A stretch of 64,000 nt of DNA, taken from Leucoraja ocellata. Taxonomy: Eukaryota. Below the pieces are notes generated by a model. It saw nothing but the letters and a program-made list of their open reading frames with translations, searched no databases and had not been told where the DNA came from. The position numbers and the translations under genes are program-made. The stretch spans positions 3,534,001 to 3,598,000 of the forward strand of contig JAWMAR010000203.1 of the NCBI GenBank assembly GCA_036785375.1, given 5' to 3'. Within the stretch, counting starts at the first letter, position 1, and every line of letters starts with the position of its first letter. Positions 16,935 to 53,250 of the stretch are shown in pieces.

Positions 16935-17385
16935 TCAGAAGATACAAGACACAATTTATTTGTCATTTGGACCCCTTGAGGTCCAAACGAAATGACGTTT
17001 CTGCAGCCATACATTACAAACAAATAGACCCAAGACACAACATATTTTACATAAACATCCATCACATTGCTGTGATGGAAGGCCAAAAAAACTTATCTCT
17101 TCACTGCACTCTCTCCCCCCCCCCCCCCCCCCCCCGATGTCAGAGTGAAAGTCAAAGCCCCCGGCTGGCGATGGCGATTGTCCCGCGGCCATTAAAGCCA
17201 CGCCGGGTGATGGAAGGTCGCACACCGGGTTCTTGATGTTAGAGCCCCCGGCGTGCGCTCGCAGAGTCCCGCAGCCATTCCAAGCCGCGCGGGGTGGTGC
17301 TGTAAGGCCCCGCTCCAGGAGCTCTTCGACCCCGCAACTCGGGCAGGAGAAGTCGCCGTTGCGGGAGCCATGAAAAGCGGTCCCC
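16935..17385 (-). mobile_element. GC-rich short non-LTR element; a second copy in opposite orientation lies at about 59960-60440
   Basis: The two copies share about 400 bp of clear similarity, including the caaatgacaaataaa tail. Confidence 0.75.
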
Positions 17386-19074
17386 AACCAAGGAAACAGA
17401 AATTGAAGAAAATACTAAATTTTCTGTCTGAATTCAGGGCTGCTCTTACAATAAAGTATCACACAAAGATCAGTGAACTTAGGGCACAGTTGAAAACTCC
17501 CAAATGTGTAGTTAATCAAGCCTTAAAGAGAAAGCAATACCAAATAGATTTAACGGACAGAAAGATTCAGGCACTCAAAACCAAATTACGTGGGAAAACG
17601 TTTGCACGAGAGCTTGCTGAAACCAAGGCAGAGCTTTTGAGATTTAAAAAAGCACACAGACAATTGCTGATGTTTCATGACAGTAAGAAAAAGAGGAAAA
17701 CTGTTTCAATTCACCAGTACAGAAAAGTTCATGAAAATTTAAAGGACATGGAAGAGGATGTGAGACGCCTCGAATTTGACAATCTTGTCCACAAAGAAAC
17801 AATCAAAACTCTGCAGGCTGCCAGTATTGTCAAGTCAAAGGTGGACCAGAAAACTTACTCCTCAACAACAAGCATGCATGTGTTTGACTGTATTGTAAAC
17901 AAAACTCCCACAGCAAACATTTCAATCATAATAAGCCAGTTCTACAAGCGGAGTGGACTTAATCTGGATCATGTTCCTCGACGCAGTGCAGTTGAAGTTA
18001 TGGCCCGAGAATTGGGAGCTATTGCTGAGTTGCAAACAGCAGAGATGCTCCTTGCAACAAAGGGTTTGACTGTGGGTTTTGATGCAACCACCCAGGAAGA
18101 GACCCACATTAACAGTGTACACTTCACCACCACAGACAAATGTCTCTCTGCAGCAGTCGATGAATTGGCTGGTGGAACTGCTGAGGACTATGCACAACAT
18201 ATTTGCGAAACAGTTGACAATTTGTGTAAAACTTACACTCATTTCAATGAGCAAGCAGATTTTCAAGATACCAGGCAAAAGATAATCGCTAACATTTCAA
18301 ACACAATGAGTGACAGGTGTGCAGCTAATCATGCTGCTATTAGGATTGTGAGTAGCGAGTGGGGTAAATCTTTGAATGAGCTCTACTGCCACTTGCATTG
18401 TCTTGATTCCATTGCAACATCAGTTCGCTCAGCCCTCAAAATGCAGAGACAATCCGGAGGAAAATTCTTGTTTGGGTAAGACTGTCTAGCAGTAAATGCC
18501 ATACTGAAGATGAGCAAACTTCGGTACAAGAATGGAAAAGGGGACCCAAAAGGATTTGTCGCATTTTTGGATGACAGGAACATCACCCGAGTTGTCCTCC
18601 CACGATACCTTGGCAACAGATTGTACATACTGTTTCATATTAGTGGCAAGCTCATAGAATATTATGATGACTTTGTTGCCCTGCTGAATAGCAGAACATT
18701 CTGTGGGGGGTTGAAAAGCGCCATCCTCCATGACTTCACCCAGGCTGATGCAAAAGTAGAACTTCAGATATTAGACTTACTTGGCAAATATCTGACTGGG
18801 CCTTGGATGAAGCACTTCTACACTTCAAGCCAGAATCAGATCAATCATGTTGATGGCATCAAAGTGGTCAAAGGGGTGATTGCTACTCTAAAGGAAGCCA
18901 CAGATAATCCAGCCAACTTGATATTAGCAAGGGAAGATTTCTTTGGTGAGGAGGTACATCTTGATGCCACATTGACAAAACTTTGGGAGCTACCAGTACA
19001 TCCACAGTTCAGTTCAAAGATGAGGAGCTGTCTTCAAGCTGTCATCACTATGTTGGAGAGGTAGTATAGTAAAT

Positions 19075-32102: not shown

Positions 32103-32151
32103 ATGTCATCGTTTACACAATTCATCTCCACACTCTGCCTCTTTCTCCCAG
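32103..32151 (+). CDS. Exon 1, signal peptide MSSFTQFISTLCLFLP(G)
   Basis: ATG in caaaATG context, hydrophobic core, consensus donor CAG|gtaagt, phase 1 (split leader typical of IgSF genes). Confidence 0.85.
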
Positions 32152-35100
32152 GTAAGTCATTCATGTTCACCCTTGCCAACCTGCTCACGTTGTCTTCCTA
32201 TAACTTGTTTCTTTCTATGGCTTTTGCACTAAAGGTTGTTTTTTTGCCGTATTTTAGAAACTTCTTGTGTAATTTATGTTCAATTTGTTTTTGAATATGT
32301 GTTTGTTTCAGTGTAGGTGCATGTGATGCTGTTGCAAGCAAGATTTTAATTTAGACACAAAAGCAGAAATTGAACATGTAGTTTAAATAAGAATAAAGGG
32401 GAGACCATTTAAGACTGATGTGAGAAACAGCTTTTTCACCCAGAGAGTTGTGAATTTGTGGAATGGTTCCGAACCGAAACGTCACCCGTCATTTTTCTCC
32501 AGAGATGCTGCCTGACCCGCTGAGTTACTCCTGTACCTTGTGACACAAGGAACAGTAGATGCTGGAAATGCAGTTAATGTAAGTTTACATGAGGACATTA
32601 ACGCATAAATGTAAGAGACACAAGAAGTGCAGATGCTGGAATCTTGAACAAAACACAGTACTGGAGTAACTCAGCGGGTCAGGCAGCATCTCTGGAGAAC
32701 ATGGACAGGTCACGTTTCGCGTCGCCACCTTTCTTCGCATATGTTCTCCAGAGATGCTACTAGCGTCTCTAGCACTTTGTGTCTGTCTTCGATATAGATC
32801 AGCATCTGCAGTTCCTTCCAACACAAGTGGTTACAGGTGAGAGAGGGGGGGGGGGGGGGGGGGGTTAATTGGGCCTGGACCTCACTGTCCTTGTGCCCAT
32901 GATAGTAAACTCGAGTTACTCGGAAGGCGTCGTTAACTATGTTCACTTTCCGTGCCAGGGTCCGCTGTCGGTGTGAGGGTGAACCAGTCTCCTGCTGCTC
33001 TGACACTTCTCCGAGGGCAGACAGCTACGTTCACCTGCTCCCTGCTACCTGGAGAGGGGGAGGTAGTTTCAATGAGGCAATACTGGTTTCGGACGAAAGA
33101 CAACCCGGAGCTCTGGGACAACAAGACCGAGAGTTTTCTGAAGACAGGCGACCGACTGTTCGTGTCTGTGGGCTCGCTGGTCATTCGGGAGGTGACTGTG
33201 CACGATGCAGATACTTACCATTGTGTGGTACTGAATGAAGATATCTGGAAAAAGTTTACAGGAAACGGAACCACATTACATATCCAAGGTAATTAATATA
33301 ATAATAAACAGGAACAGGCCCTTCAGCCCGCAATGTTCGTGCGGCCCATGAGGCCAAGTTAAACAAACATGTGTCTATCCAAAAGTCTCTTAAACTCTAC
33401 GATCGAATCTGCCTCCACAGCCACCCCGAGATCTGATGCGATGGAGTTGGTGAATCACACGAACCCCAAGTTCCCTAAACCGAAACGCCGCCTGTCCATT
33501 CTCTCCATAGATGCGGCCTTAACCGCTGAGTTCCTCCAGCATTTTGTGTTTTGCTTAAGACTGCAGCGCCTGCAGTTCCATGTCTCTACTTCCATTTCAT
33601 TCCTGCATTTCATCTCTCTCTATTAATGCTCATTTTCTGGCACAAACCAGCCCAGTCTGACAAAAGGTCCCGAACTTAAACGTCATATATCCATGATTTC
33701 CAGAGATGCTGCCTGGCCCGCTGAGTTACTCCAGCGCTTTGAGCCTTTCTTTGGTAAAAATAAAACTCGCATCTACAGTTCCTCCTGTCTCCCTAATGAT
33801 ACAAAATAGATAATGAAAACAACATCAACCTCGGTCGTAGTGTTTATATCCCCCAACAGTTCTAGTGCTGGCATTTAATTCTCCTGATTTCCTTACAAGG
33901 AGGGAGTGTGGAAACAAAAGCATCTTTGTTTCTCTCAGTTTTCTCTAGATTCCCTCTTGACATGACCGGCTGAAGTCGTCAAGTTGGGAAAAGGGGAAGT
34001 ACAACGGGATCTGGGGGTCCTTGTTCATCAGTCTATGAAAGTAAGCATGCGGGTACAGCAGGCAATGAAGAAATCGAATGGCATGTTGGCCTTTATAACA
34101 CGAGGAATCGAATATAGGAGCAAAAGGGTATTTCTGCAGTTGTACAGAGTCCTAGTGAGACCACACATGGAGTATTGTGTGCAGTTTTGGTCCCCTAATT
34201 TGAGGAAGGACATTCTTGCTATTGAGGGAGTGCATCGTAGGTTTACAAGGTTAATTCCCGGGATGGCGGGACTGTCATATGCTGAGAGAATGGAGCAGCT
34301 GGGCTTGTACACTCTGGAGTTTAGAAGGATGAGAGGGTATCTTATTGAAACATATAAGATTATTAAGGGCTTGGGCACGCTAAAGGCAGGAAACATGTTC
34401 CCGATGTTGTGGGAGTCCAGAACCAGGGGCCACAGTTTAAGAATAAGGAGTAAGCCATTTAGAACGGAGACGCGGAAACACTTTTTTCTCACAGAGTGTG
34501 GTGAGTCTGTGGAATTCTCTGCCTCAGAGGGCGGTGGAGGCAGGTTCTCTGGAAGCTTTCAAGAGAGAGCTATGTAAAGCTCTTAAAAATAACGGAGTCA
34601 GGGGATATGGGGAGAAGGCAGGAACGGGGTACTGATTGGGGATGATCAGCCATGATCACAATGAATGGCAGTGCTGGCTCGAAGGGCCAAATGGCCTACT
34701 CCTGCATCTGTTGTCTATTGTCTATTGATTCTTGTCTTTGTCAAGTTCGGTTTAACATTTGCTTCCGGGCTCCAGGGGAGTATAATAATGCCCCTGAAAC
34801 AATTCCCGGCTGCGATAACCAAATGTGCGGCAGATGCATCATGTATATGTGTGAAAATGAACACAACTAAATATAAGCGATAGAATCAAGGAGGGCAGCA
34901 GTGAGAGAGGGCAGACTCAAAGTGATGGAGTAACAGCGGGTCAGGCAGCATCTCTGGACATCATGGATAGGTGACGTTTAGGGTCAGGAACCTTCGTCAG
35001 CCTGGGTTGGTTTGCGCCTCAACGTGCACATTAATAGAGAGAGATAAAATGCAGGAAGGGAAATAAATAGAAGTGGAGACGGGGAACTGCAGGCGCTGGA

Positions 35101-38100
35101 GTCTTAAGCAAAACACAAAGTAACGGGGAACTCGGCGGATAAGGCAGCATTCGTGGAGGTTTGGTGTTGGGGAACTTGGGACGTGTGTGAGGTCCCCAGC
35201 CCACTGTATCAGCGGACAGTGGGAATGGTCGCACACATCCCTAACGCTTCATTGAAGGGAGGCAGCTACAATGCAAACGTGTGGCCGCTCTCCCATCGCC
35301 CACGGGCTGGCGAGAGGGAGCCCGACCCGACCAGACTCTGCTAAATAATTCTGGCAACGTGAATCCATCTTCTGGCCAATCTGGGCCCGGACAGTACAGG
35401 ATGTAAAAGAAAAGAAAGAAAATGCTGGAGCTACTCATCGGGTCGGTCCGTGTGTGTGTGGGGGAGAATTTACCGATTCACATTGAAGGCTTCCAGTCGA
35501 AACCCTGATCCTGAGACACAAGGAACCGGAGGGGCTGGTTAAAACAAAGACGCAAAGTGCTGGAGGAACTCATCGGGTCAGGCAGCATCTCTGGAGAACA
35601 TGGACCGTCATTCTCTTCCCACGAATCAGGCTTGTACGGCTGAATATTTATATGGTACACAAAAAAATGCTGGAGAAACTCAGCGGGTGCAGACAGGGTT
35701 TCGGCGCGAAACGTCGCCTATTTCCTTCGCTCCATAGATGCTGCTGCACCCGCTGAGTTTCTCCAGCTTTTTTTTTGTGTACCTTCGATCTTCCAGCATC
35801 TGCAGTTCCTTCTTGAATATTTATATGTTCTGTTTTAGATGTCCATCATCGGCTTGGATTTAGTTTACCGTCTACATATTCACTTCCATTTCATGCATCA
35901 AAATACACAAAGTGCTGGAGGAACTCGGTGGGTCCGGCAGCATCTGAATGGACAGGCGACGATTCAGACCGAAGAAGGGTCCCGACCCGAAACACCGCCT
36001 GTCCATTCCCCCCGCAGATGTACCTGGCTCGATGAGTTCCTCCAGCACTTTGTGTTGGACAATGGACAATAGGTGCAGGAGTGGGCCATTTGGCCCTTCG
36101 AGCTAGCACCGCCATTCACTGTGATCATGGCTGATCATCCACAATTAGTATCCCGTTCCTGCCTTCTCCCCATATCCATGGACTCCGCTATCTTTAAGAG
36201 CTCTATAACTCTTGAACGCATCCAGAGAATTGGCCTCCACTGCCGAGGCAGAGAATTCCACAGATCCGCAACTCTCTAGTTGAAATGTTTTTCCTCATCT
36301 CCATTCTAAATGGCTTTCTTAAAAAAAAAATTCCAGCATCTCCAGTTCCTTGTGTCTCCAATTCCATTTCATTCGCTTCCTGTATTTTTCTTTCTTATTG
36401 TGCATTTTGAGACACAGACTGAAGAGATGTAGTCTGTAGATGTAACCCGACCCGAAACATCACATATCATCCATGAAGAGTTACTCCAGCACGTTGTGTC
36501 TCGTCAGCTATCCATGTTCTCCAGAGATGCCGACTGACCCTCTGAGTTACTCCAGTACTTGTGCCTTTCTTTGGTATAAACCAGCGTTTGCAGCTCCTCT
36601 TTATTCCGCTAATAATCCATTGAATAACTTGGTTGCTCCTTAAGCAGGTGCACGGCGTGCCGTGTTATCATAGTTGCTCCATGCATGACTGAGAGCGACA
36701 GGAAGATTCACAGCGTGTTATTTTCCTACTTTACGCAGCGAAGCCTGACATCTCCCTGACCCTGGATCCCGGGATAGAAGGCGCAGAGACGCGGAGCCTG
36801 ACTTGTGTGGCCTCCGGATTCTTCCCGAGGGAGCTGAACATGTCCTGGGCTGTCGTGGGCCAGTTGTCCTATGAAACAGAAGCGGGGCCGCTGAGGGAGA
36901 ATGAGGATGGAAGCTTCAACGTGAGCTCCCGGCTGCGGCTCACCGGCCCTCGGCTAGAGGCGGGCATGGTCGTCACCTGCCTGGTTCAGCACCTCACGGG
37001 GAAGGGCTCGGTGAGCGAACGTTTCCCTCCCATCCCGAGTAAGTGGCTTGAATGAACGTGGCAGCCAGCGTCCTCCAGTTACTGAAGATACACAGAGTGC
37101 TGGAGTAACTCAGCGGCTCAGTTACTGCCGAGTTACTCCAACATTTTGTGTCTATCTGCGCTGTAAACTAGCATCTGCAGTTCCTTCCTACACATGTCCA
37201 AGGTTGCAAGGTTTAATAGTACATGTGTACACATTTGTTAAACGTAGCCACAATGAACTGCAGATTCTTGATTACAAAAAATACACAAAGTGTTGAAGTA
37301 ACTCAGCAGCGTCTAGTAGCATCTCTGGAGAACGTTGAACGTAATTCATAAACCTGATCAAAAGTTTATGAGATCACTCAATGTGTACAATATCAACTGC
37401 AAATATGGATTTAGACTTTCAGACTTTAGAGATACGCGGGAAAAGGCATTTCGGCCGATCAGCGATCACCTCATACACTGGCTAGACAAACACACGCTGG
37501 AGGAACTCAGCAGGTGAGGCAGCATCTATGTAGAGAAGGATATGCGACGTTTCGGGTCGAGACCTTTCTTCTTAAACACATCATACATTAACACTATCCT
37601 GCGCATTGGGGACAATTTACAATTTTACCGAAGCCAATTAACATACAAACTCGTACGTCTTTGGAGTGTGGGAGGAACCCGGAGAACCCGGAAAAAAATC
37701 CACGCAGGTCACGGGAAGAACGTACAGACTCCGCACATCCAACACCCGTAGTCAGGATTGAACCCGCGTCTACTGCGCTGTAAGGCAGCAACTCAAGTAC
37801 AGTTCATCTGTGCATCGATATATATATATATACATATTTGAGTTGCTGCCTTATATATTATATAATTATTATATGTATATATACATCGATGATATCAGCT
37901 CAAGATATGTATATATATATGTGTGTATATGTGTATATATATATCTATATATATATATACACACACACATTTATATATATATCTTTCTTCATTATTATTT
38001 GAACCATTTACCGTTACAATACGGCGTAAGTGCTTTATCATATAAATATATTATATACATCTTGACCAGATAAAGCACTTACGCCGTATTTAAACTGTAA

Positions 38101-41100: not shown

Positions 41101-44100
41101 ACAACAGAATTACGGATTACATTCAAATAAATCTTTTAGATATTTACAACTTAAAGATTATGTTAAATCACATACACGAGAATACAGAACCAGAGAGCCA
41201 GAGATTCTAGATGAATGTTTGAATAAACACCCTAACACAGTCAAATTAATATCTCACATTTATAATACTTTTATAGACAGTGAGAATCTGTCGACGGAAT
41301 TATACAGACCAGCATGGGAAAAGGAATTAGCTCAACCTATACCGAAAGATATTTGGGACGAAAGCCTACAACATATACACCAATGTTCGTTAAATGCCAT
41401 ACATTCTTTAATACAATTTAAAGCACTACATAGACTGCATTATTCTAAAACAAATTTAAATAGAATGTTTCCTAATATCTCTCCTATCTGTGATAAATGT
41501 CAATCCCACGTGGCTAATTCAACCCATGCTTTTGTAATCTGTAGTAAAATTAAAAATTACTGGATGGATATTTTTAAAATAATCTCTGTAGTTGTCAATA
41601 CCCAAATCGATCCCGGTCCTAAATTAATAATATTGGGCATATCAGAACAATACCTAAACCTCAGAATAAACCAAAGAGATTTCCTTGATTACAGTATAAT
41701 AATTGGGAAAAAATTGATATTAAAATTTTGGAAAAACCCAACAACCCCCACAATCAAGATGTGGATTATGGAGATGTCAGAGACCTTACATTTGGAAAAA
41801 ATTAGATTTGTCTTAATTGACAAACCAGAATTATTCACTAGAATATGGTCTCCATTTATAGATTATTTGAAGGGGTAGATGCGGAGTGCTAGTGCGGAGG
41901 CCGGACTGAAGCGTGAACCCAGGACTAGATGAATAGTTATGTTCTCTGGCCCCAAGTTGTATTATTAATAGTTTATCCTATTTTTCTAATTTCCTTCTTT
42001 CTTTCTTTATTTTCCCATCTATAAATATAAATAAATAATTAGAGGCAATGTTAACATGTAACCGATAAAGGAGGATCCCAGCTACTTTGGTAACTGGCTC
42101 CCTGGAAACCTGGATATTTAATATGTAACCGTTAAACAAAGTCTGTACTGGTTTGGATTATGATATGCAGATGCCTCTAATAAAAATGTATTTAAAAAAA
42201 AAAGGAAATTGGAGGAACAACATCTCATATTTCGCTTGGGCAGCTTACAACCCAGGGGTATGAATATTGATTTCTCTAACTCCAAGTAACCCTTGAAGTT
42301 AGAGAAACCCTCTCTCTCTCCATCCCTCCCCATCCAAGTCACAACAGCTTTTTGTTCTCACCTAGCTACAGCTAACAATGACCTGTTTCCTTTATCATCA
42401 ATACTGTTTTGCATATCTTTCATTCAGTTGTTCTATATCTCTCGACATCATTGTCGATATCTTTTGTTTCCCTTCCCCTTGACTTTCAGTCTGAAGAAGT
42501 GTCTCGACCCAAAACATCACCCATTCCTTCTCTCCACAGATGCTCCCAGTCCCACTGAGTTACTGCAGCATTTTGTGTCTATCTTCGATTTGAACCAGCA
42601 TCTGCAGTTCCTTCCTATGAAATTCTGCTCATCTCTCTATCATCTATTTTTTCCCCTGTTCTCACGATCGGTCCTTGACCTGTTTCTTTAACTTTGTTTC
42701 TCTTTCCACATTTGCTGCCTGGTCTGCTGCATAGTTCCAGCATTTTCTTTCTTTTCTTTAACTTTTTTTTAAAAGCTTCTCATTGTAAATTGGTTACAAT
42801 GTAGTGCTTTATTATTATATGGCAGAATTACAAGTCACAGTTTATGCTCTGTGATTTGGGAGATCTTGGTTTCATAGTAAATGATTTACTGAAGCCAGTA
42901 GGCAGATATAGCAAATCAATGTGAAAGCTGTATAGTGGAAATGTCAAGGACTAGAGGACATAGCTTCAAGGTGAGAGAGGCAAAGTTTAAAGGAGATGTA
43001 CGGGACAAGTTGTTTTACACAGAGGGTGGTGAGTGCCTGGAACATGTTGCTAGTAGTGGTGGTGGAGGCTGATATGATAGTGGCATTTAAGAGGTGTTTA
43101 GAAAGGCATACGGATATGCAGGGAATGGAGGGATATGATTCACGTGCAGGCAGAGAAGATTGGTTTAACTTGGCTCCATGTTCGTCACAGACATTGCAGG
43201 CTGAAGGGCCTGTACTATGTTCTAAACTCTATGAGGTTGGCAGATTCTGTACACAACACATTCCAAGACAGACCATTACATAAAGGATTCACAGTTGATT
43301 TTGCATAATGATTTCTTCTTGTTGTTTGGTTTATAAGGGGCAAAGTTTAACGAAGATGTGCAGGGGGTGAGTTTTTGTACACAGGGTGGTGGGTTCCTGG
43401 AATGCACTGCCAGGGGTGGTAGTGGAGGCAGATATGATAGCGGTGTTTAAGAGGCTTTTAGGAAGCAGTTATGCAGCTGATTTTGCAAAGAACCCTAGTG
43501 GTTTGTGAAATGTTTCACTTCTCATAAACAGATCGGTAATTAACAATACTTATCGAGTCCACACCCAAGGTTAGAAGTTGTTCAGCCACAGACATACATT
43601 GATGTCTGTCTTGCGCTTGTTGTGCTTCCTGTGCGTGATGGTGGGAGATTGGTGGAAACAGGGCCGTGACGTGAACGCTCTTTCCTTGACCCCATTTACA
43701 ACACGTTATCTTGCGGTCATTTACAGTACAAGGAACCAATCTTTACCCCAGTAACAGTAAATTTAGTGAATAGTAAGAATGTTAATCTATGAATAGAATA
43801 ATGTAGGTTTTCTCCTATGAAAGGCCTGACTTATTTCTTTAAGGATAGATATTTGTAGAACTAGAATATTAAGCCAAATAACCAAACGGACGCAACGCCG
43901 AAAAGCCAAATAACCGAACATGATGTCGCCGGGGGGCAGGACTTGTCAGTGATTGGTCCAGACCCCCGTGTCCATTACATCACTGGCCGGTGGAGACGGG
44001 AGGGTGGGGGTCATTTTCCCACACCGGGGCTGGAGGGTCACTGGGCATTGTGAACCCGAGCACCAAGGTGTAAGGGGGCGAAGGAGCGCATCCCTCAGGG

Positions 44101-47100
44101 CAGCCCCCACCCTCCCCCCCAGGGTCGGCAGCACACACATACATGGGGCCGGGTGGAGCAGAGTTGGGGACAGTCTGGTCCCTCCGCCCACCCAGATTCA
44201 CTGACCGCAATGCACCACCACCAGACCCCGACACCCACACCGTGGTGATTCACCCTCCCCGAACCCTGGACCCGACCCACACACGGGGTAATTCACACCA
44301 CCGACACCCACACCGGGTGATTCACCCCCACCCCCACTCCCGGCCATGGGGACAGACGGCCTGGGGCGCTGGCAGTCAAAGTAAATCGCTTTTAAAACAT
44401 GGTGGGGGGGCCACAAATTCCGTGGCGGGCCAATGACAAGTGTGCATGACAATGAACAATTTTATCTCCTCCCACACCTCCCCTATTGACAACAATAAGC
44501 ACGTTTTAATTATTTATACACAGTAATACCGCCTGGTTGCCTGCGTAACGCACACACACCGGGTTGACTGCAATCATTGAAACAGGGCAGACCACGTGAA
44601 AGTTGCAATCTTCCAACCCATGCGTAACGCACAAAACACTAGATAATCTTATTTTTTCAGTTTATTTGCATTTCATGTGTTTTTTTGAACTTTGCGCATT
44701 TAACAGTGTCATTTTCACAGCGGTGTCGAGTGCATCGTACTTTTTCCCCCCGCAGATGATACATTACTCTCACAACACATAACTTACCTCTATTACCCCT
44801 GTACATAAAAACAAAATGACAATGCCCCTTCAAGGTCTACTAATCCACCCATAGCTTCAGTTGCAGGTACAGCTGAAGGGATTTGGCGCTCGGAACAATG
44901 ACTGCATTAGAAGATCATCTGAGCATCTTGAAATCAATCTCATGAGCACGAGTGAAAGATAGCCGAGCGATGCGGTATCGATCTGCCCACATCACACACA
45001 GTGGAAAAGAATGAAATGGAAATTGCAAATTATTCACCCTCATGAGATTGATTTCAAGATGCTCAGATGAACTTCTAATGCGCTCATTTATGTAGAGGGG
45101 TAATAGAGGTGAGGTATGTGATTCGAGAGTAATGTATCATCTGCGGGGGGGGGAAGAAAAGTACGATGTACTCAACACCGCTGTGAAAATGGCTGTTAAA
45201 TGCGCAAAGTTCATAAACACAAATGAACTGCAAATAAACTGAAAATAATCTGGTGTTTTGTGCGTGGGAGCTTGTTGTGTGCATTACGCAGGCAACCAGA
45301 TGGTATTACTGTGTTTAAACAATAAATAAAATGTGCTTCTTGTTGTCAAGGGAAAGGGGGAGGGGGGTAGTGGGAGGAGATAAAATTGGTCGGTGTGGGT
45401 GGGGTGGTGGGGGGTGAATCACCCTGGTCTGGGGGTCGAGGTCTGGTGGCGGGGCATCGTGGTCAGTGACTCTGGGTGGGCAGAGGGACCAGACTGTCCC
45501 CAACTCTGCTGCAGCTGACGGGCCGGGGATGTTGCCAAGTTTTTCTCCCCGTGTGTCCGCGGTCCCGTTTCACCCGGGCCCGTGTGTGCGTGCGCTGCCG
45601 ACCCACAGCCTGTCACAATGTGGCCGCACGGGGCAGACGAGACGGTGGGCGGCCGTGGCCGGACAGCACTGACCCGGGGGGGGGGGGGGGGGGGAGTTGG
45701 GTCTGTCTCGAGGGATGCGCTCCTTCGGCTGCTTACACTTTGGTGCTCGTGTTCCAAACGCCCAGTCACCCCCTTGCTCCGGGCGATCTTATGTGAGGAA
45801 AATGACCCCCACTCTCCCGTCTCCCCCAGCCAGTGATGTGATGGACGCGGGGGTCTGGACCAATCGCTGACAAGTCCCGCCCATTATTTTTCACTGTTGA
45901 GTCCGTTCAGTGAGTTGGCTTTTCAGCAATGCGCCCTTTCGGTTATTTGGTTTTTAGTGTCCCGCCGTTTTGGTTATTCGGCTTTTCGGCGTTGCGTCCG
46001 TTCGATTAGTTGGCTTTTCGGCGTTGCGTCCATTTGGTTATTTGGCTTTTCGGCATCGTTTCCGTTGGGTGGGAAAGTGTGATAACATAGAATTGGTTTG
46101 AGCAGGTGAGCGATGGCCAGTGTGGACTCGGTGGGCAGAAGCACCAGGTTCCATTCTGTTTCTTTAAACAAAATGAAACTAAACTAAATACATGTTTAAT
46201 GTTGTATGTAACAGTGCATTTATATTAACGTAACATGCATTAGTCATGATTATATTTGCTATTCATTGGAGCATTGTTTTGATTCACATTTCAATTGTGA
46301 TTTTCAAGGATCCTCCGAGTATTATTTCATTCTACTGAGTCTGATCCTAATAGTACCAATATGCGTCTGGATTGTGTATAATTACCACAGTAAATTGAAG
46401 AAAGGAAAAGGTAATGTATACATTGTACATCTTATTTTGTAATTTAACTAACAACTGAGCATATAAAAGTGAATATTGTATTTAGTTCCCGGTGAGAGTA
46501 AAATAATTTAAACAAAATGAAGGTGACACAGTGTTGCAGTTTGTAGAGCTGTTGCCTCACAGCGGGTTCAATCCTGACTGGGCGCTGACCATGTGGAGTT
46601 TGCACGTTCTCCCTGTGACCTCATGGGTTTTTTCAGAATGCTCCGGTTTCCTCTCATGTTTGGGTTTATAGGTTAATTGGCCTCTGTAAATTGCCCCTAG
46701 TGTGTAGGGAGTGGATGAGAAAGTGGGATAACATAAAACTAGCGTGATCGATGGGCGGCATAGACTCGGAGGGCTGAATGGCCTGTTTCTGTCCTGTACC
46801 TCTGAAGTACACTAAATCTTCATGATATTTTTATAGAATCATCTGTCCATGACGCAACTGTTGATATTCAAAGCATGAGAAAACAAAAAAACTCAGTAAA
46901 TGAGGTGAGTAATTTAGTTTGATATTTACCCTTATGTTGCATGCACGATGTTCTAATGTACACTGAGGTATTGTCAGCTTATATGAACAAATTCATCAGC
47001 ACTATTGGATGTAATGGACTAAGAACACAAGCCATTCTGCGGCACGTTGGCACAGTGGTAGAGTTGCTGCCTTGCAGCACCAGAGACCCAGGTTTGATCC

Positions 47101-50100: not shown

Positions 50101-52420
50101 CTGGATGGAGGGTTGTTTGGGGGGGGGGGGGGGGGTGGGTTGAAGTCAAAAGGCACTGCCTGCAAATGGTTGCTTGTCTAAACTTGACAACTTCCTGTTT
50201 GCACTATATTGATTTTAGATAAAACGCGACCACTTACGGCTGTGATTTTGAAATGGTATGAAACTGCATTTGAATATGGTGTCGTTGCACCCTGCATGAA
50301 ATGGTATGAAACTACATTTGAAATTGGTGACCTTGCACCCTGCTTGAAGTGGTAGGAAACTGAACCTGTATTTGGTGGCCTTGCACCCTGCTTGATGGGC
50401 AAATTAATGGAAATGATACTTAGACATAATATATATAAGCATCTGGATAAACAGGGTCTGATTAGGAACAGTCAACATGGATTTGTGCCTGGAAGGTCAT
50501 GTTTGACTAATCTTCTTGAATTTTTTGAAGAGGTTACTAGGGAAATTGACGAGGGTAAAGCAGTGGATGTTGTCTATATGGACTTTAGTAAGGCCTTTGA
50601 CAAGGTTCCTCATGCAAGGTTGGTTAAGAAGGTTAAACTGTTGGGTATAAATGCAGGAATAGCAAGATGGATTCAACAGTGTCTGAATGGGAGAAGCCAG
50701 AGGGTAATGGTGGATGGCTGTTTGTCGGGTTGGAGGCAGGTGACTAGTGGGGTGCCTCAGGGATCTGTGTTGGGTCCTTTGTTGTTTGTCATGTACATCA
50801 ATGATCTGGATGAAGGGGTGGTAAATTGGATTAGTAAGTATGCAGATGATACCAAGATAGGGGGTGTTGTGGATAATGAAGAGGATTTCCAAAGTCTACA
50901 GAGTGATTTAGGCCATTTGGAAAAATGGGCTGAAAGATGGCAGATGGAGTTTAATGCGGATAAATGTGAGCTGCTACACCTTGGCAGGACAAATCAAAAT
51001 AGGACGTACATGGTAAATGGTAGGGAATTGAAGAATACAGTTGAACAGAGGGATCTGGGAATAACCGTGCATAGTTCCTTGAAGGTGGAATCTCATATAG
51101 ATAGGGTGGTAAAGAAAGCTTTTGGTATGCTAGCCTTTATAAATCAGAGCATTGAATATAGAAGCTGGGATGTAATGTTAAAAATGCACAAGGCATTGGT
51201 GAGACCAAATCTGGAGTATGGTGCCCAATTATAGGAAGGATGTCAACAAAATAGAGAGAGTACAGAGGAGATTTACTAGAATGTTGCCTGGGTTTCAACA
51301 ACTAAGTTACAGAGGTAGGTTGAATAAGTTAGGTCTTTATTCTCTGGAGCGCAGAAGGTTAAGGGGGGACTTGATAGAGGTCTTTAAAATGATGAGAGGG
51401 ATAGACAGAGTTGATGTGGACAAGCTTTTCCCTTTGAGAATAGGGAAGATTCAAACAAGAGGACATGACTTCAGAATTAAGGGACAGAAGTTTAAGGGTA
51501 ACATGAGGGGGAACTTCTTTACTCAGAGAGTGGTAGTGGTGTGGAATGAGCTTCCAGTGGAAGTGGTGGCGGCAGGTTCATTGGTATCATTTAAAAATAA
51601 ATTGGATAGGCATATGGATGAGAAGAGAATGGAGGGTTATGGTATGAGTGCAGGCAGGTGGGACTAAGGGAAAAAAAGTTGTTTGGCACGGACTTGTAGG
51701 GCCGAGATGGCCTGTTTCCCTGCTGTAATTGTTATATGGTTATATGGTTTGAAGTGGTATGAAACTGCACTTGAATTGTGTTGCCTTGCACCCTGCTCGA
51801 AGAGGTATTAAACTGCACTTGAATTTGGTGGCCTTGCACTCTGCTTGAAATGGAATTTCAAGGAATAGCCACTTAGTCTAGTTGAGAAATAGAAGGCATA
51901 TGTTTAATGTGAGAGGGAAAAACCTGAGGGGCAACTTTATCAATCAGAGGGTGGTGGGTATATGGAACGAGCCACCTGTGGAGGTAGTTGAGGCAGGGAA
52001 TATAACACCATTTAAAATATATTTGGACAGGTGCGTGGACGGGAGCGTGGACGGGAGCGTGGACGGGTGCATGGACGGGTGCATGGACAGGAAAGGTTTA
52101 CAGGGACGAGAGCCAACCACGGGCAAATGGGACAAGCTTAGATGGGGCATCTTAGTTGGCGTAGACCAGTTGGGCCGATGGGTCTGTTTCCATGCTGTAT
52201 AACTCTATGATATGAATATAACACAACTATTTACAAGTGAGCCTTATTGTTACTTGTTATTTTTCTGTTACAGGATAATGTTTCAATAAACAATGAAAAT
52301 CTGCATTATGCGCCTGTTTATTTCAACAAGCGACAGCGAAGACAGGAATTGAGGTGGACCGAGCAATCCCAAGAAACAGAATATGCCATCTTAAAGGTCA
52401 AAGATAACAATAATTTATGA
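32103..52420 (+). CDS. Six-exon non-rearranging VJ-C1 Ig-superfamily inhibitory receptor (NKp30/SIRP/PRARP-VJC1-like), 331 aa; join(32103..32151,32959..33288,36739..37038,46309..46410,46837..46904,52274..52420)
   Basis: All five introns are GT-AG with matching phases (1,1,1,1,0). The spliced CDS is 996 nt, open from ATG to TGA. Domain order is leader, V, C1, TM, cytoplasmic with ITIM and ITSM. Confidence 0.88.
32959..33288 (+). CDS. Exon 2, germline-joined VJ-type Ig V domain
   Basis: Acceptor ttcactttccgtgccag. Translation VRVNQSP..FTC..YWFR..SLVIREV..DADTYHC..FTGNGTTLHIQ has the B-strand Cys, C-strand Trp, DxxxYxC and a J-like GxG motif. Donor AAG|gtaatt. Confidence 0.95.
33984..34725 (+). 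mobile_element. CR1 3' fragment in intron 2
   Basis: QRDLGVLV..MEYCVQFWSP..SRTRGHSL with a (tctattg)n tail. Confidence 0.9.
36739..37038 (+). CDS. Exon 3, C1-set Ig constant domain
   Basis: Acceptor ttttcctactttacgcag. Translation KPDISL..LTCVASGFFPRELNMSW..NEDGSFNVSSRL..VTCLVQH has the C1 signatures CxxxGFxP, W, NxDGSF and CxVxH. Donor gtaagt, phase 1. Confidence 0.95.
37815..38060. repeat. (TA)n-rich microsatellite / AT-rich tract
   Basis: Interrupted (TA)n and (CA)n runs. Confidence 0.85.
39570..42620 (+). mobile_element. Penelope-like element (GIY-YIG endonuclease end plus terminal repeat), split by an L1
   Basis: FTCISSNLTYCIRCSRCGLLYIGETKCRLGHHFAEHL. It resumes after the L1 as LEEQHLIFRLGSLQPRGMNIDF. 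Confidence 0.85.
39951..42205 (+). mobile_element. L1-clade LINE, 5'-truncated
   Basis: RQGCPLSPLLF, LYADD, SGYRINWNKSE, CDKC..H..C, polyA tail. 12-bp TSD aaattggaggaa at 39939-39950 and 42206-42217. Confidence 0.93.
43871..46070. mobile_element. About 2.2-kb imperfect foldback (palindromic) DNA element in intron 3
   Basis: Arms match as reverse complements from the terminal (aagccaaataaccgaa)n arrays, through tggtccagaccccc, to the centre near 44900-45085. Confidence 0.85.
46309..46410 (+). CDS. Exon 4, transmembrane segment
   Basis: Acceptor gattttcaag. Translation SSEYYFILLSLILIVPICVWIVYNYHSKLKKGK is a 20-aa hydrophobic stretch followed by a basic stop-transfer. Donor AAG|gtaatg, phase 1-1. 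Confidence 0.85.
46525..48200. mobile_element. Three HE1-like SINEs (46525-46810 plus; 47040-47300 plus; 47895-48200 minus)
   Basis: tRNA-like head, ttctccctgtgacc core and CR1-like tail. Confidence 0.75.
46837..46904 (+). CDS. Exon 5, cytoplasmic linker
   Basis: Acceptor atatttttatag, translation (E)SSVHDATVDIQSMRKQKNSVNE, donor GAG|gtgagt. It supplies the phase 1 to 0 switch needed to reach exon 6. Confidence 0.8.
48784..48815 (+). ncRNA. Minimal hammerhead ribozyme-like motif in a Penelope-derived repeat (representative of many copies)
   Basis: gt-CTGAAGA-a-gggtc-cc-gaccc-(g>a)AAAcgtc-ac. Other copies keep GAAA, so the family consensus has an intact core. Confidence 0.65.
49891..51881 (+). 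mobile_element. Non-autonomous Helitron with an internal minisatellite of about 48 bp
   Basis: 5' A|TCTATATATTACTAAAA and 3' CTAG|T with no TSD. The flanks rejoin as a CR1 fragment (gggaa|ttgagaaatagaagg). Confidence 0.8.
50396..51748 (+). mobile_element. Young CR1 LINE (RT plus 3' UTR) nested in the Helitron
   Basis: 280-aa ORF with QHGF, DFSKAFD, GVPQGS and YADD, (ttatatgg)n tail, ttga duplicated at both ends. Confidence 0.95.
52274..52420 (+). CDS. Exon 6, cytoplasmic tail with ITIM and ITSM
   Basis: Strong acceptor ttttttctgttacag. Translation DNVSINNENLHYAPVYFNKRQRRQELRWTEQSQETEYAILKVKDNNNL*. AATAAA at 52440-52445. Confidence 0.88.
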   Translation, partial: DNVSINNENLHYAPVYFNKRQRRQELRWTEQSQETEYAILKVKDNNNL

Positions 52421-53250
52421 AGAGCCCATAACCCAGAGTAATAAATTGTCCCTCTTCAACGAGACCACAAACTGATAATTATCATAAAACCACACACTCT
52501 TCTCGCAAACAATATACGTAGAATATAAGAAACAGAAACTAAAGGCTGTAGCACAGCTTGTGAAATTTAATTCTCTATTCAATTACTTTCCTTGAGCTCA
52601 AAACCAATTGATCTGACTCGACCTTGATCGCCTTCTCAGAGTTCCAAATGTTTAGCATTATTATTGCCGTGTGTAGTGAGGTACAGTGAAAAGCTTTGTT
52701 TTGCATGCTATCCAATCAAATCAGATATTACTATACATACACCAGTAAATACAATTAAGTCAAGTACAAGAGGTAGAGCAAAGGGGAAGATACAGAGTGC
52801 AGAATATAGTTCTCAGCATTGTAGCACATCAGTCCAATGTCCGCAATGGGGTAGAGGTGAATCGGACAGTACCCTAGCTTATGAAAGGACCGTTCGGAAG
52901 CCTGATAACGGAGGGGAAGAAGCTGTTCCTGAATCTGTTGGTGTGCATTTTCAAGCTTCTGTACCTTCTGCCTGGGGAGCAGGGAGAAAAAGGAATGCCG
53001 GGGTGGGGCAAGTCTTTGATTATGCTGGCTGCCAAACCGATGAGCCGCACATCTCTACTTTCAGAAGAAGGGTTCCGACCCAAAACATCACCTTTTTGTT
53101 GTTCCAGAGACCCGCTGAGTTACTCCAGCACTTTGTATCTATCTAGAGCAGGGTCACACTGAAGATGGGTCTTGCCCTAAAACATCACCCGTCCATGTCC
53201 TCCAGAGATGTCGCTTTGATAATATCAGGCATTTTGTGTGCCTGACAAAA

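Follow-up and report, generated by a model that had tools for sequence, protein, structure and literature searches.

J-like strands in innate receptors, and paired receptors, are already known as principles. PRARP, attributed to Fu et al. 2019, reportedly combines a single-exon VJ domain with a C1 domain, a transmembrane segment (TM) and an ITIM/ITSM-type tail. According to an excerpt of PMC10751288, it is a VJ gene of the MHC. Likewise, excerpted text of PMC12227049 describes UrIg and UrIg2 as non-rearranging genes with a split leader, a single VJ exon and C1 domains (3 in UrIg, 9-11 in UrIg2), which form disulfide-linked dimers and are located in the MHC or the Ig/TCR complex. Among the paired receptors, SIRP comprises a variable, ligand-binding V domain with a J-like strand followed by C1 domains, and occurs in an ITIM form and in a short-tailed form with a charged TM (PMC12975943, in part). 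KLRC, KLRI and PIR likewise comprise an ITIM form and an ITIM-less form with a TM arginine, the ligand-binding exons being more alike than the signalling exons (PMC3210942, in part). Finally, NKp30 is described as a single IgV domain with a TM arginine, no signalling by its tail and a location in MHC class III (PMC6514059, in part).

Here, we analysed a window of 64,000 nucleotides of Leucoraja ocellata DNA (the whole stretch presented above), in which the original prediction had read a J-like segment fused in the germline to the V exon of an NKp30-like gene. Judged from its sequence, this VJ exon quite probably belongs to an intact skate gene for a membrane-bound V-C1 receptor whose tail bears two tyrosine motifs. 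The gene has likely never undergone rearrangement, and its product is likely the inhibitory partner within a family of paired receptors. The V-C1 paired-receptor family of sharks and rays has apparently been undescribed so far; our literature search yielded no account of it, and several relevant papers and supplements beyond its scope may describe it.

The VJ-C1-TM layout with ITIM/ITSM motifs is the one reported for PRARP. However, PRARP lies in the MHC (PMC10751288, in part), whereas the skate gene lies in a VTCN1-MAN1A block. The split leader, the single VJ exon, the C1 domain and the lack of rearrangement are shared with UrIg and UrIg2 (PMC12227049, in part), from which the skate gene differs by its one C1 domain, the lack of a spare ectodomain cysteine, the ITIM tail and the paired forms. 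By sequence, the family would work like the SIRP paired receptors, with which it has the V domain with a J-like strand, C1, the ITIM form and the charged short-tail form in common (PMC12975943, in part); SIRP has two C1 domains but the skate gene one, and the chromosomal blocks differ. As in KLRC, KLRI and PIR (PMC3210942, in part), an ITIM form is accompanied by an ITIM-less form with a TM arginine, and the ligand-binding exons are more alike than the signalling exons. The fold families differ, however, and in the shark and ray family the Arg form apparently arose twice, in skates and in other rays.

Results

Gene structure and protein

The gene consists of six canonical exons (leader, VJ, C1, a neutral TM exon and two tail exons), which were resolved by tblastn with the sawfish orthologue as probe in combination with splice-site ends (Table 1). 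The spliced open reading frame is intact and encodes 331 aa. The leader exon was found in the five other genomic copies of the gene as well (5/5). Another candidate for the TM exon, a hydrophobic stretch near 43590, was ruled out by an in-phase stop; the TM exon given in Table 1 matches the orthologues. The cysteines of the mature ectodomain are the four domain cysteines only, with no spare C-terminal cysteine for chain pairing. As originally claimed, the gene encodes an ITIM tail: the last coding exon contains LHYAPV and TEYAIL, which by motif consensus we take to be an ITIM and an ITSM/ITIM-like motif, respectively. An AATAAA is present at 52440. The remainder of the window consists mostly of LINE and SINE fragments, and two long ORFs (422 and 194 aa) at 17211-19064 are probably transposon-derived.

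Table 1. Features of the skate receptor gene; positions refer to the window.
Feature	Position	Strand	Evidence and remarks
Leader exon, ATG, 16 codons + 1 base; signal peptide ends in next exon	32103..32151	+	GT donor, phase 1, in frame with V exon
VJ exon, V-set domain (C'-C'' region short) ending in J-like G strand	32959..33288	+	Pfam V-set E 7.8e-9; AG/GT ends; model pLDDT 76.5
F strand, CDR3-like FG loop, J-like G strand; among copies, variability is highest in the loop	33204..33288	+	
C1-set domain exon	36739..37038	+	Pfam C1-set E 2.9e-13; 61% to sawfish orthologue
TM exon, uncharged in window copy	46309..46410	+	Leu-to-Arg in 4/6 copies
First cytoplasmic exon	46837..46904	+	tblastn with sawfish orthologue; AG/GT ends
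Last coding exon, holds stop codon	52274..52420	+	
ITIM LHYAPV	52301..52318	+	Tyr codon is a stop in 4/6 copies
ITSM/ITIM-like TEYAIL	52376..52393	+	
Remnant of longer shark tail (third and fourth tyrosine region), out of frame, last codons into 3' UTR	52395..52515	+	tblastn, tails of 4 orthologues as queries; E about 1e-4 to 5e-5

The VJ exon is joined in the germline

An open frame on the + strand from 32937 to 33296 spans the VJ exon. DADTYHC starts at 33204 and FTGNGT at 33255, and a GT donor directly follows the exon end. The peptide quoted in the original prediction lies within this single frame, in agreement with an uninterrupted V exon that itself carries the GxG bulge, V and the J-like G strand both being encoded between 32959 and 33288.

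The proposed absence of a heptamer/nonamer around the CDR3-equivalent was borne out by a scan for recombination signal sequences (RSS), which gave values at or below chance. In the 64-kb window, no RSS with 12- or 23-spacers and at most 3 mismatches was found (chance expectation 0.77 and 0.88), and of the RSS-like sites lying no more than 150 bp from the exon end, the best carried 5-6 mismatches in each of the six copies (median 7 and 5th percentile 5 after shuffling). TCR-type V control exons of the same skate genome scored 0-3 mismatches in 19/19 cases, whereas germline-joined IgL exons of this genome lacked an RSS in 5/5 cases (7-8 mismatches). The absence of an RSS alone therefore cannot tell a never-rearranged from a germline-joined gene. 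The controls were a large TCR-alpha/delta-type V array with 23-spacer RSS on C471 and germline-joined IgL clusters with FGKGT (L144, L148, L157, L165 and L173; C384, C531 and C4817); germline-joined Ig clusters, noted before as a feature of sharks, thus occur in this genome too.

A protein search of the genome gave 8 matches among 36 candidates scored, six of which are full-length copies at 91-100%. All six are joined, and a split V-RSS/RSS-J copy was not found among the best-scoring candidates. Moreover, J-plus-intron DNA was found solely within the six copy exons (6/6 candidates of a genome search). Contigs from three sequencing runs of one study, one of which may be the source sample, spanned the joined V-J junction, with the short loop in one and the long loop in two (one sample); no RNA run was listed among those containing the gene.

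Orthologues in sharks and rays

Protein searches revealed orthologues with the same layout in 11 shark and ray species, with a V identity of 48-68%; the largest search gave 17 hits among 7994 candidates, one of them a frog protein already present in the query alignment. These orthologues bear the automatic names SIRP-beta-1-like, SHPS1-like, Ig-kappa-like or TCR-beta-like. The C1 domain is kept in all of them, and four myliobatiform proteins (stingray and manta orthologues) have a V-C1-C1 layout. Among 14 full-length orthologues, ten contain the tyrosine motifs; in the remaining four the tail is short and the TM bears an Arg (3) or a His (1). The loop comprises 12-14 residues. Of the 16 non-skate orthologue rows, 12 show a Cys-to-Gly distance of 14, a single row one of 13 and the other three one of 12, and loop residues are held in common. 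Because this spacing and these residues are shared, the VJ exon is best read as an old fixed exon and not as a collection of junctions formed independently. That loop and architecture are kept in 11 species supports well the view that the gene was never rearranged. Since a canonical FGxG occurs in 5/16 of the non-skate orthologue rows, FTGNG in place of F/WGxG, cited originally in favour of a never-rearranged gene, is not diagnostic.

In a V tree of 41 rows, built without human NKp30, SIRP, PRARP and UrIg rows and without P0019 and P0041, the shark and ray family formed one clade (99/99). The family did not fall inside the 4 IgL rows (100/98) or the 6 TCR rows, and deeper branching was weakly supported. 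Thus, the V-domain phylogeny that had been proposed as a check places the family outside the sampled IgL and TCR rows, but an AU test did not reject family and IgL as one clade (p-AU 0.148).

ITIM-type and Arg-type copies

Two of the six genomic copies are of the ITIM type (the window gene and the copy on contig C203 at 3.965 Mb), and four are of the Arg type (C203 at 3.45 and 4.116 Mb, C1820 and C2713). In all four Arg-type copies, a TM Leu close to the outer end is replaced by Arg, and the codon of the ITIM tyrosine is a stop; as this stop sits in the last coding exon, the Arg-type transcript should escape decay. In the last exon of this type (L021-L024), an Asn-to-Tyr exchange immediately ahead of the stop gives rise to a YENL terminus, a possible SH2 docking site (Grb2-type YxN).

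V and C1 are 91-98% alike between the genomic copies, and their exons do not sort by ITIM or Arg type. A tree of the TM and tail exons sorts by type (99/99), with the Arg type nesting with the skate ITIM type (100/99). Between the two types, the introns diverge by about 10-13% directly beside the TM and tail exons as compared to mostly 2-6% around V and C1, a pattern also reported for the mammalian paired receptors KLRC and PIR (PMC3210942, in part). The TM and tail of the Arg type carry 11 non-synonymous (stop included) and 2 synonymous changes in 68 codons, and these fit relaxed constraint as well as selection.

In the sawfish, the ITIM form and the Arg form are 99% identical in V and 100% in C1. 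The Arg forms of sawfish, a stingray and a devil ray are built on another TM exon, which was not found in the skate genome by a search with a short query and no positive control. Because the Arg forms of other rays use a different TM exon, the activating type would likely have arisen twice, with independent origins in skates and in other rays.

Copy number and variation

On C203, the four copies are arranged in mirror symmetry around a 200-N gap at 3,768,102; the two arms differ by 2.3% over 195 kb, and single-copy marker genes are doubled too. Hence, the assembly probably carries both haplotypes, with inflated copy numbers. Genes also recur as mirror or tandem pairs within contigs at about 2.30, 3.35 and 3.77 Mb of C203 and on C451, C213 and C28. 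Since mirrored copies may be alleles, the six copies may represent three loci only (range 3 to 6); in that case, the FG-loop differences between the two ITIM copies would be an allelic polymorphism of the SIRP-alpha kind.

Variable residues occupy 6/12 FG-loop columns versus 10/82 framework columns (Fisher p 0.005), and the loop bears a two-residue indel. However, positive selection on V is not supported, because synonymous change in the FG loop is high as well (pS 0.14, pN 0.15) and dN/dS over the whole V is about 1.

The chromosomal block and a B7-H4-like neighbour

A B7-family V-C gene adjoins the receptor cluster; its best PDB match is B7-H4, its orthologues are named VTCN1, and it is 81-89% identical to skate proteins. 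The two genes are also linked in the sawfish, where the VTCN1 orthologue and the receptor genes lie on one chromosome (120,465,868 bases). Three copies of the B7-H4/VTCN1-like gene were seen on C203 at 3.271-3.275, 3.418-3.422 and 4.155-4.157 Mb (L106, L120/L121 and L087). The V domain of this gene lacks the F-strand Cys, and a TM segment is absent in the six homologues found. Six of nine differences between its copies fall in residues 95-108, an interval picked after seeing the data.

The VTCN1-like neighbour led us to predict a block corresponding to human 1p13-p12, and MAN1A-type, TENT5 and Utp12/WDR3-type genes were then found on C203. The VTCN1-MAN1A-TENT5-WDR3 block matches this human region, and by elimination we take the MAN1A-type gene to be MAN1A2. 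IFT57, a gene of the CD47/HHLA2 region, is located on another contig. When 148 of the 1041 de-duplicated candidate ORFs in about 0.95 Mb around the gene were scanned with Pfam, almost only transposon proteins and no host neighbour were identified.

A predicted complex of the receptor V and the B7-H4-like V scored 0.69 (three runs) versus 0.00 for the best of three controls, which were unrelated proteins and not chosen Ig domains; the mark applied is reached by 51/78 solved and 2/108 mismatched pairs. The contacts agree to at least 88% between runs, and the pLDDT of the partner is at least 88. The predicted pose employs the faces used by PD-1 and PD-L1, and PD-L1 is among the PDB matches of the partner. 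Given this pose, this match and the choice of controls, the score may reflect a memory of PD-1/PD-L1. Across 20 rows, six of the ten positions through which the receptor makes contact hardly vary in kind, and variable sites are not significantly enriched in the predicted interface (p 0.08-0.11). The conserved V face could equally be a V-V dimer surface.

Other single-exon VJ genes

Several further genes of this kind were observed. On C175 (1.140-1.142 and 1.200-1.202 Mb; L167, L016, L017 and L140), a second VJ and C1 family with an EIPPP loop comprises two genes with divergent V and near-identical C1, at 25% V identity to the family of the window gene. L007 and L008 (C436 and C228) are single-exon VJ genes with an EIP loop and a GNGT strand, which we take to be CD28H/TMIGD2-like; they are about 97% alike and probably alleles. 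Arrays of closely spaced single-exon VJ domains ending in YNGHGT (L174-L187; C2394, C3751, C4569, C742 and C5487) are related to the shark two-V Arg-TM protein P0033 and are possibly NKp30-like genes. The frog proteins P0040, P0010 and P0019 contain tandem VJ domains, one of them together with C1, TM and an ITIM/ITSM-like tail; they are possible distant relatives, with no supported grouping.

Discussion

The pairing of an inhibitory with an activating form depends on how the Arg-type copies are read. It is rather unlikely that the window gene is a real inhibitory receptor while the Arg/stop copies are decaying duplicates instead of activating partners. Amino-acid change lies nearly entirely on the Arg branch (0.14 versus about 0), as after a loss of constraint, and in the Arg copy on C1820 the frame of C1 is broken by a single inserted base within a C run, which may be an assembly error. 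Nevertheless, the Arg at the outer TM end and the stop exactly on the ITIM tyrosine are common to 4/4 copies, V and C1 are open in three of the four, Arg-TM forms of the same family exist in three other rays and, as a weaker point, 204 coding bases are free of indels versus about 12-15 gaps per 1.1 kb in the flanking introns. We thus favour the reading that the near-identical tail-less copies likely act as activating receptors. Whether the family consists of true elasmobranch SIRP orthologues with CD47 as ligand is a separate question. The names 'SIRP beta-1-like' and 'SHPS1-like', the V+C1(+C1) layout with inhibitory and charged-TM forms and the first place of SIRP-alpha clusters in the Atlas (0.97) point in this direction, as does the PDB family profile, which ranks UrIg2 at the top, followed by SIRP-alpha and SIRP-gamma, with scores that sum over domains. 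Yet the V identity to SIRP-beta is 22%, the charge is an Arg at the outer TM end and not the DAP12-type Lys used by the charged SIRP form, and the block matches human 1p13-p12. Moreover, SEP-domain genes, which we take as the marker of the mammalian SIRP region on account of its neighbour NSFL1C, lie on C14, C904 and C667 and not on C203 of this fragmented assembly. One survey dates the SIRP family to Tetrapoda (PMC13262535, in part), and we regard SIRP orthology as distinctly unlikely.

It appears very unlikely that the family goes back to an old Ig light or TCR chain joined in the germline (V-J-C1), which would have gained its TM and ITIM tail before the split of sharks and rays. The V domain lies outside the sampled IgL and TCR rows, its C'-C'' region is short, unlike that of an IgL or TCR V, and the gene is off the IgL and TCR contigs; the protein has no inter-chain C-terminal cysteine, and its neutral TM and ITIM tail are neither secreted nor of the TCR type. 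The VJ exon itself is common to many non-rearranging families. In favour of such a descent are the light-chain-like layout of split leader, VJ and C1, the IgL V and VNAR among the best single-sequence PDB matches, the AU result, the FGxG rows and the germline-joined IgL of this genome and of sharks (PMC12227049, in part). The original assignment to NKp30 (NCR3), that is, an elasmobranch member of this family in inhibitory form, is extremely improbable. WFR, IREVxxHDA and TGNGT are indeed present in the skate gene and resemble human NKp30, which has a VJ domain in a single exon ending in TGNGT as well. In addition, the TM-Arg logic of NKp30 is that of the Arg-type sister copies, NKp30 is among the Foldseek matches (3noi, rank 19, 27% identity), and a B7-family gene adjoins the cluster, the NKp30 ligand being a B7-family protein. 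However, the motifs are mostly skate-specific and poorly kept in the 16 non-skate orthologue rows (WFR 2, TGNG 2, H of HDA 0, FGxG 5), and similar GxGT strands occur in several other single-exon VJ genes of the same genome. With the V model, Foldseek scored NKp30 no better than VNAR, TCR, IgL or SIRP-beta, and NKp30 and SIRP were absent from the top 60 of 214 and the top 60 of 559 PDB sequence matches, which are dominated by antibodies. NKp30 as described lacks C1 and ITIM and lies in MHC class III (PMC6514059, in part); the skate gene differs on each, with V and C1, two tyrosine motifs, an uncharged TM (Arg in sister copies only) and a block that, judged by its VTCN1-like, MAN1A-type, TENT5 and WDR3-type neighbours, is not MHC class III. 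Taken together, the original prediction is supported as to a non-rearranging gene with J fused in the germline and fails as to NKp30 membership, and it overlooked the C1 exon, the copies of the activating type and the adjoining B7-H4-like gene.

In the paired-receptor model favoured here, a ligand would engage the front face and the FG loop of the V domain. Src-family kinases would phosphorylate LHYAPV and TEYAIL, and the phosphorylated tail would recruit SHP-1/2 and dampen the leukocyte. The Arg-type copies, with the same V-C1, would signal via an ITAM adaptor of the FcR-gamma/CD3-zeta type, and exchange between copies may keep the ectodomains alike and the signalling halves apart. As to the ligand, to our knowledge the receptor of B7-H4 in mammals is still unsettled. 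A more speculative and unlikely extension is that the family represents the ancestral B7-H4 (VTCN1) receptor, forming with its neighbour a linked polymorphic checkpoint pair in which both partners vary at the F-G strands, and for which skates re-invented an activating partner out of the inhibitory gene through a single TM exchange and a single stop. In PMC9952779, we found no text on B7-H4. If the B7-H4-like neighbour is the ligand, the family would open a direct route to this orphan checkpoint ligand.

The search for relatives of the gene that was split by the RAG transposon is directed at single-exon VJ-C1 genes (PMC12227049, in part). To these, the skate family would add a membrane-bound, signalling, two-domain VJ-C1 kind that extends across sharks and rays and has been masked by wrong automatic names (SIRP-, Ig-kappa- and TCR-beta-like). 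Moreover, the skate copies would show how an activating-type receptor emerged from an inhibitory one by steps that can still be read, separately from the Arg-TM exon of other rays.
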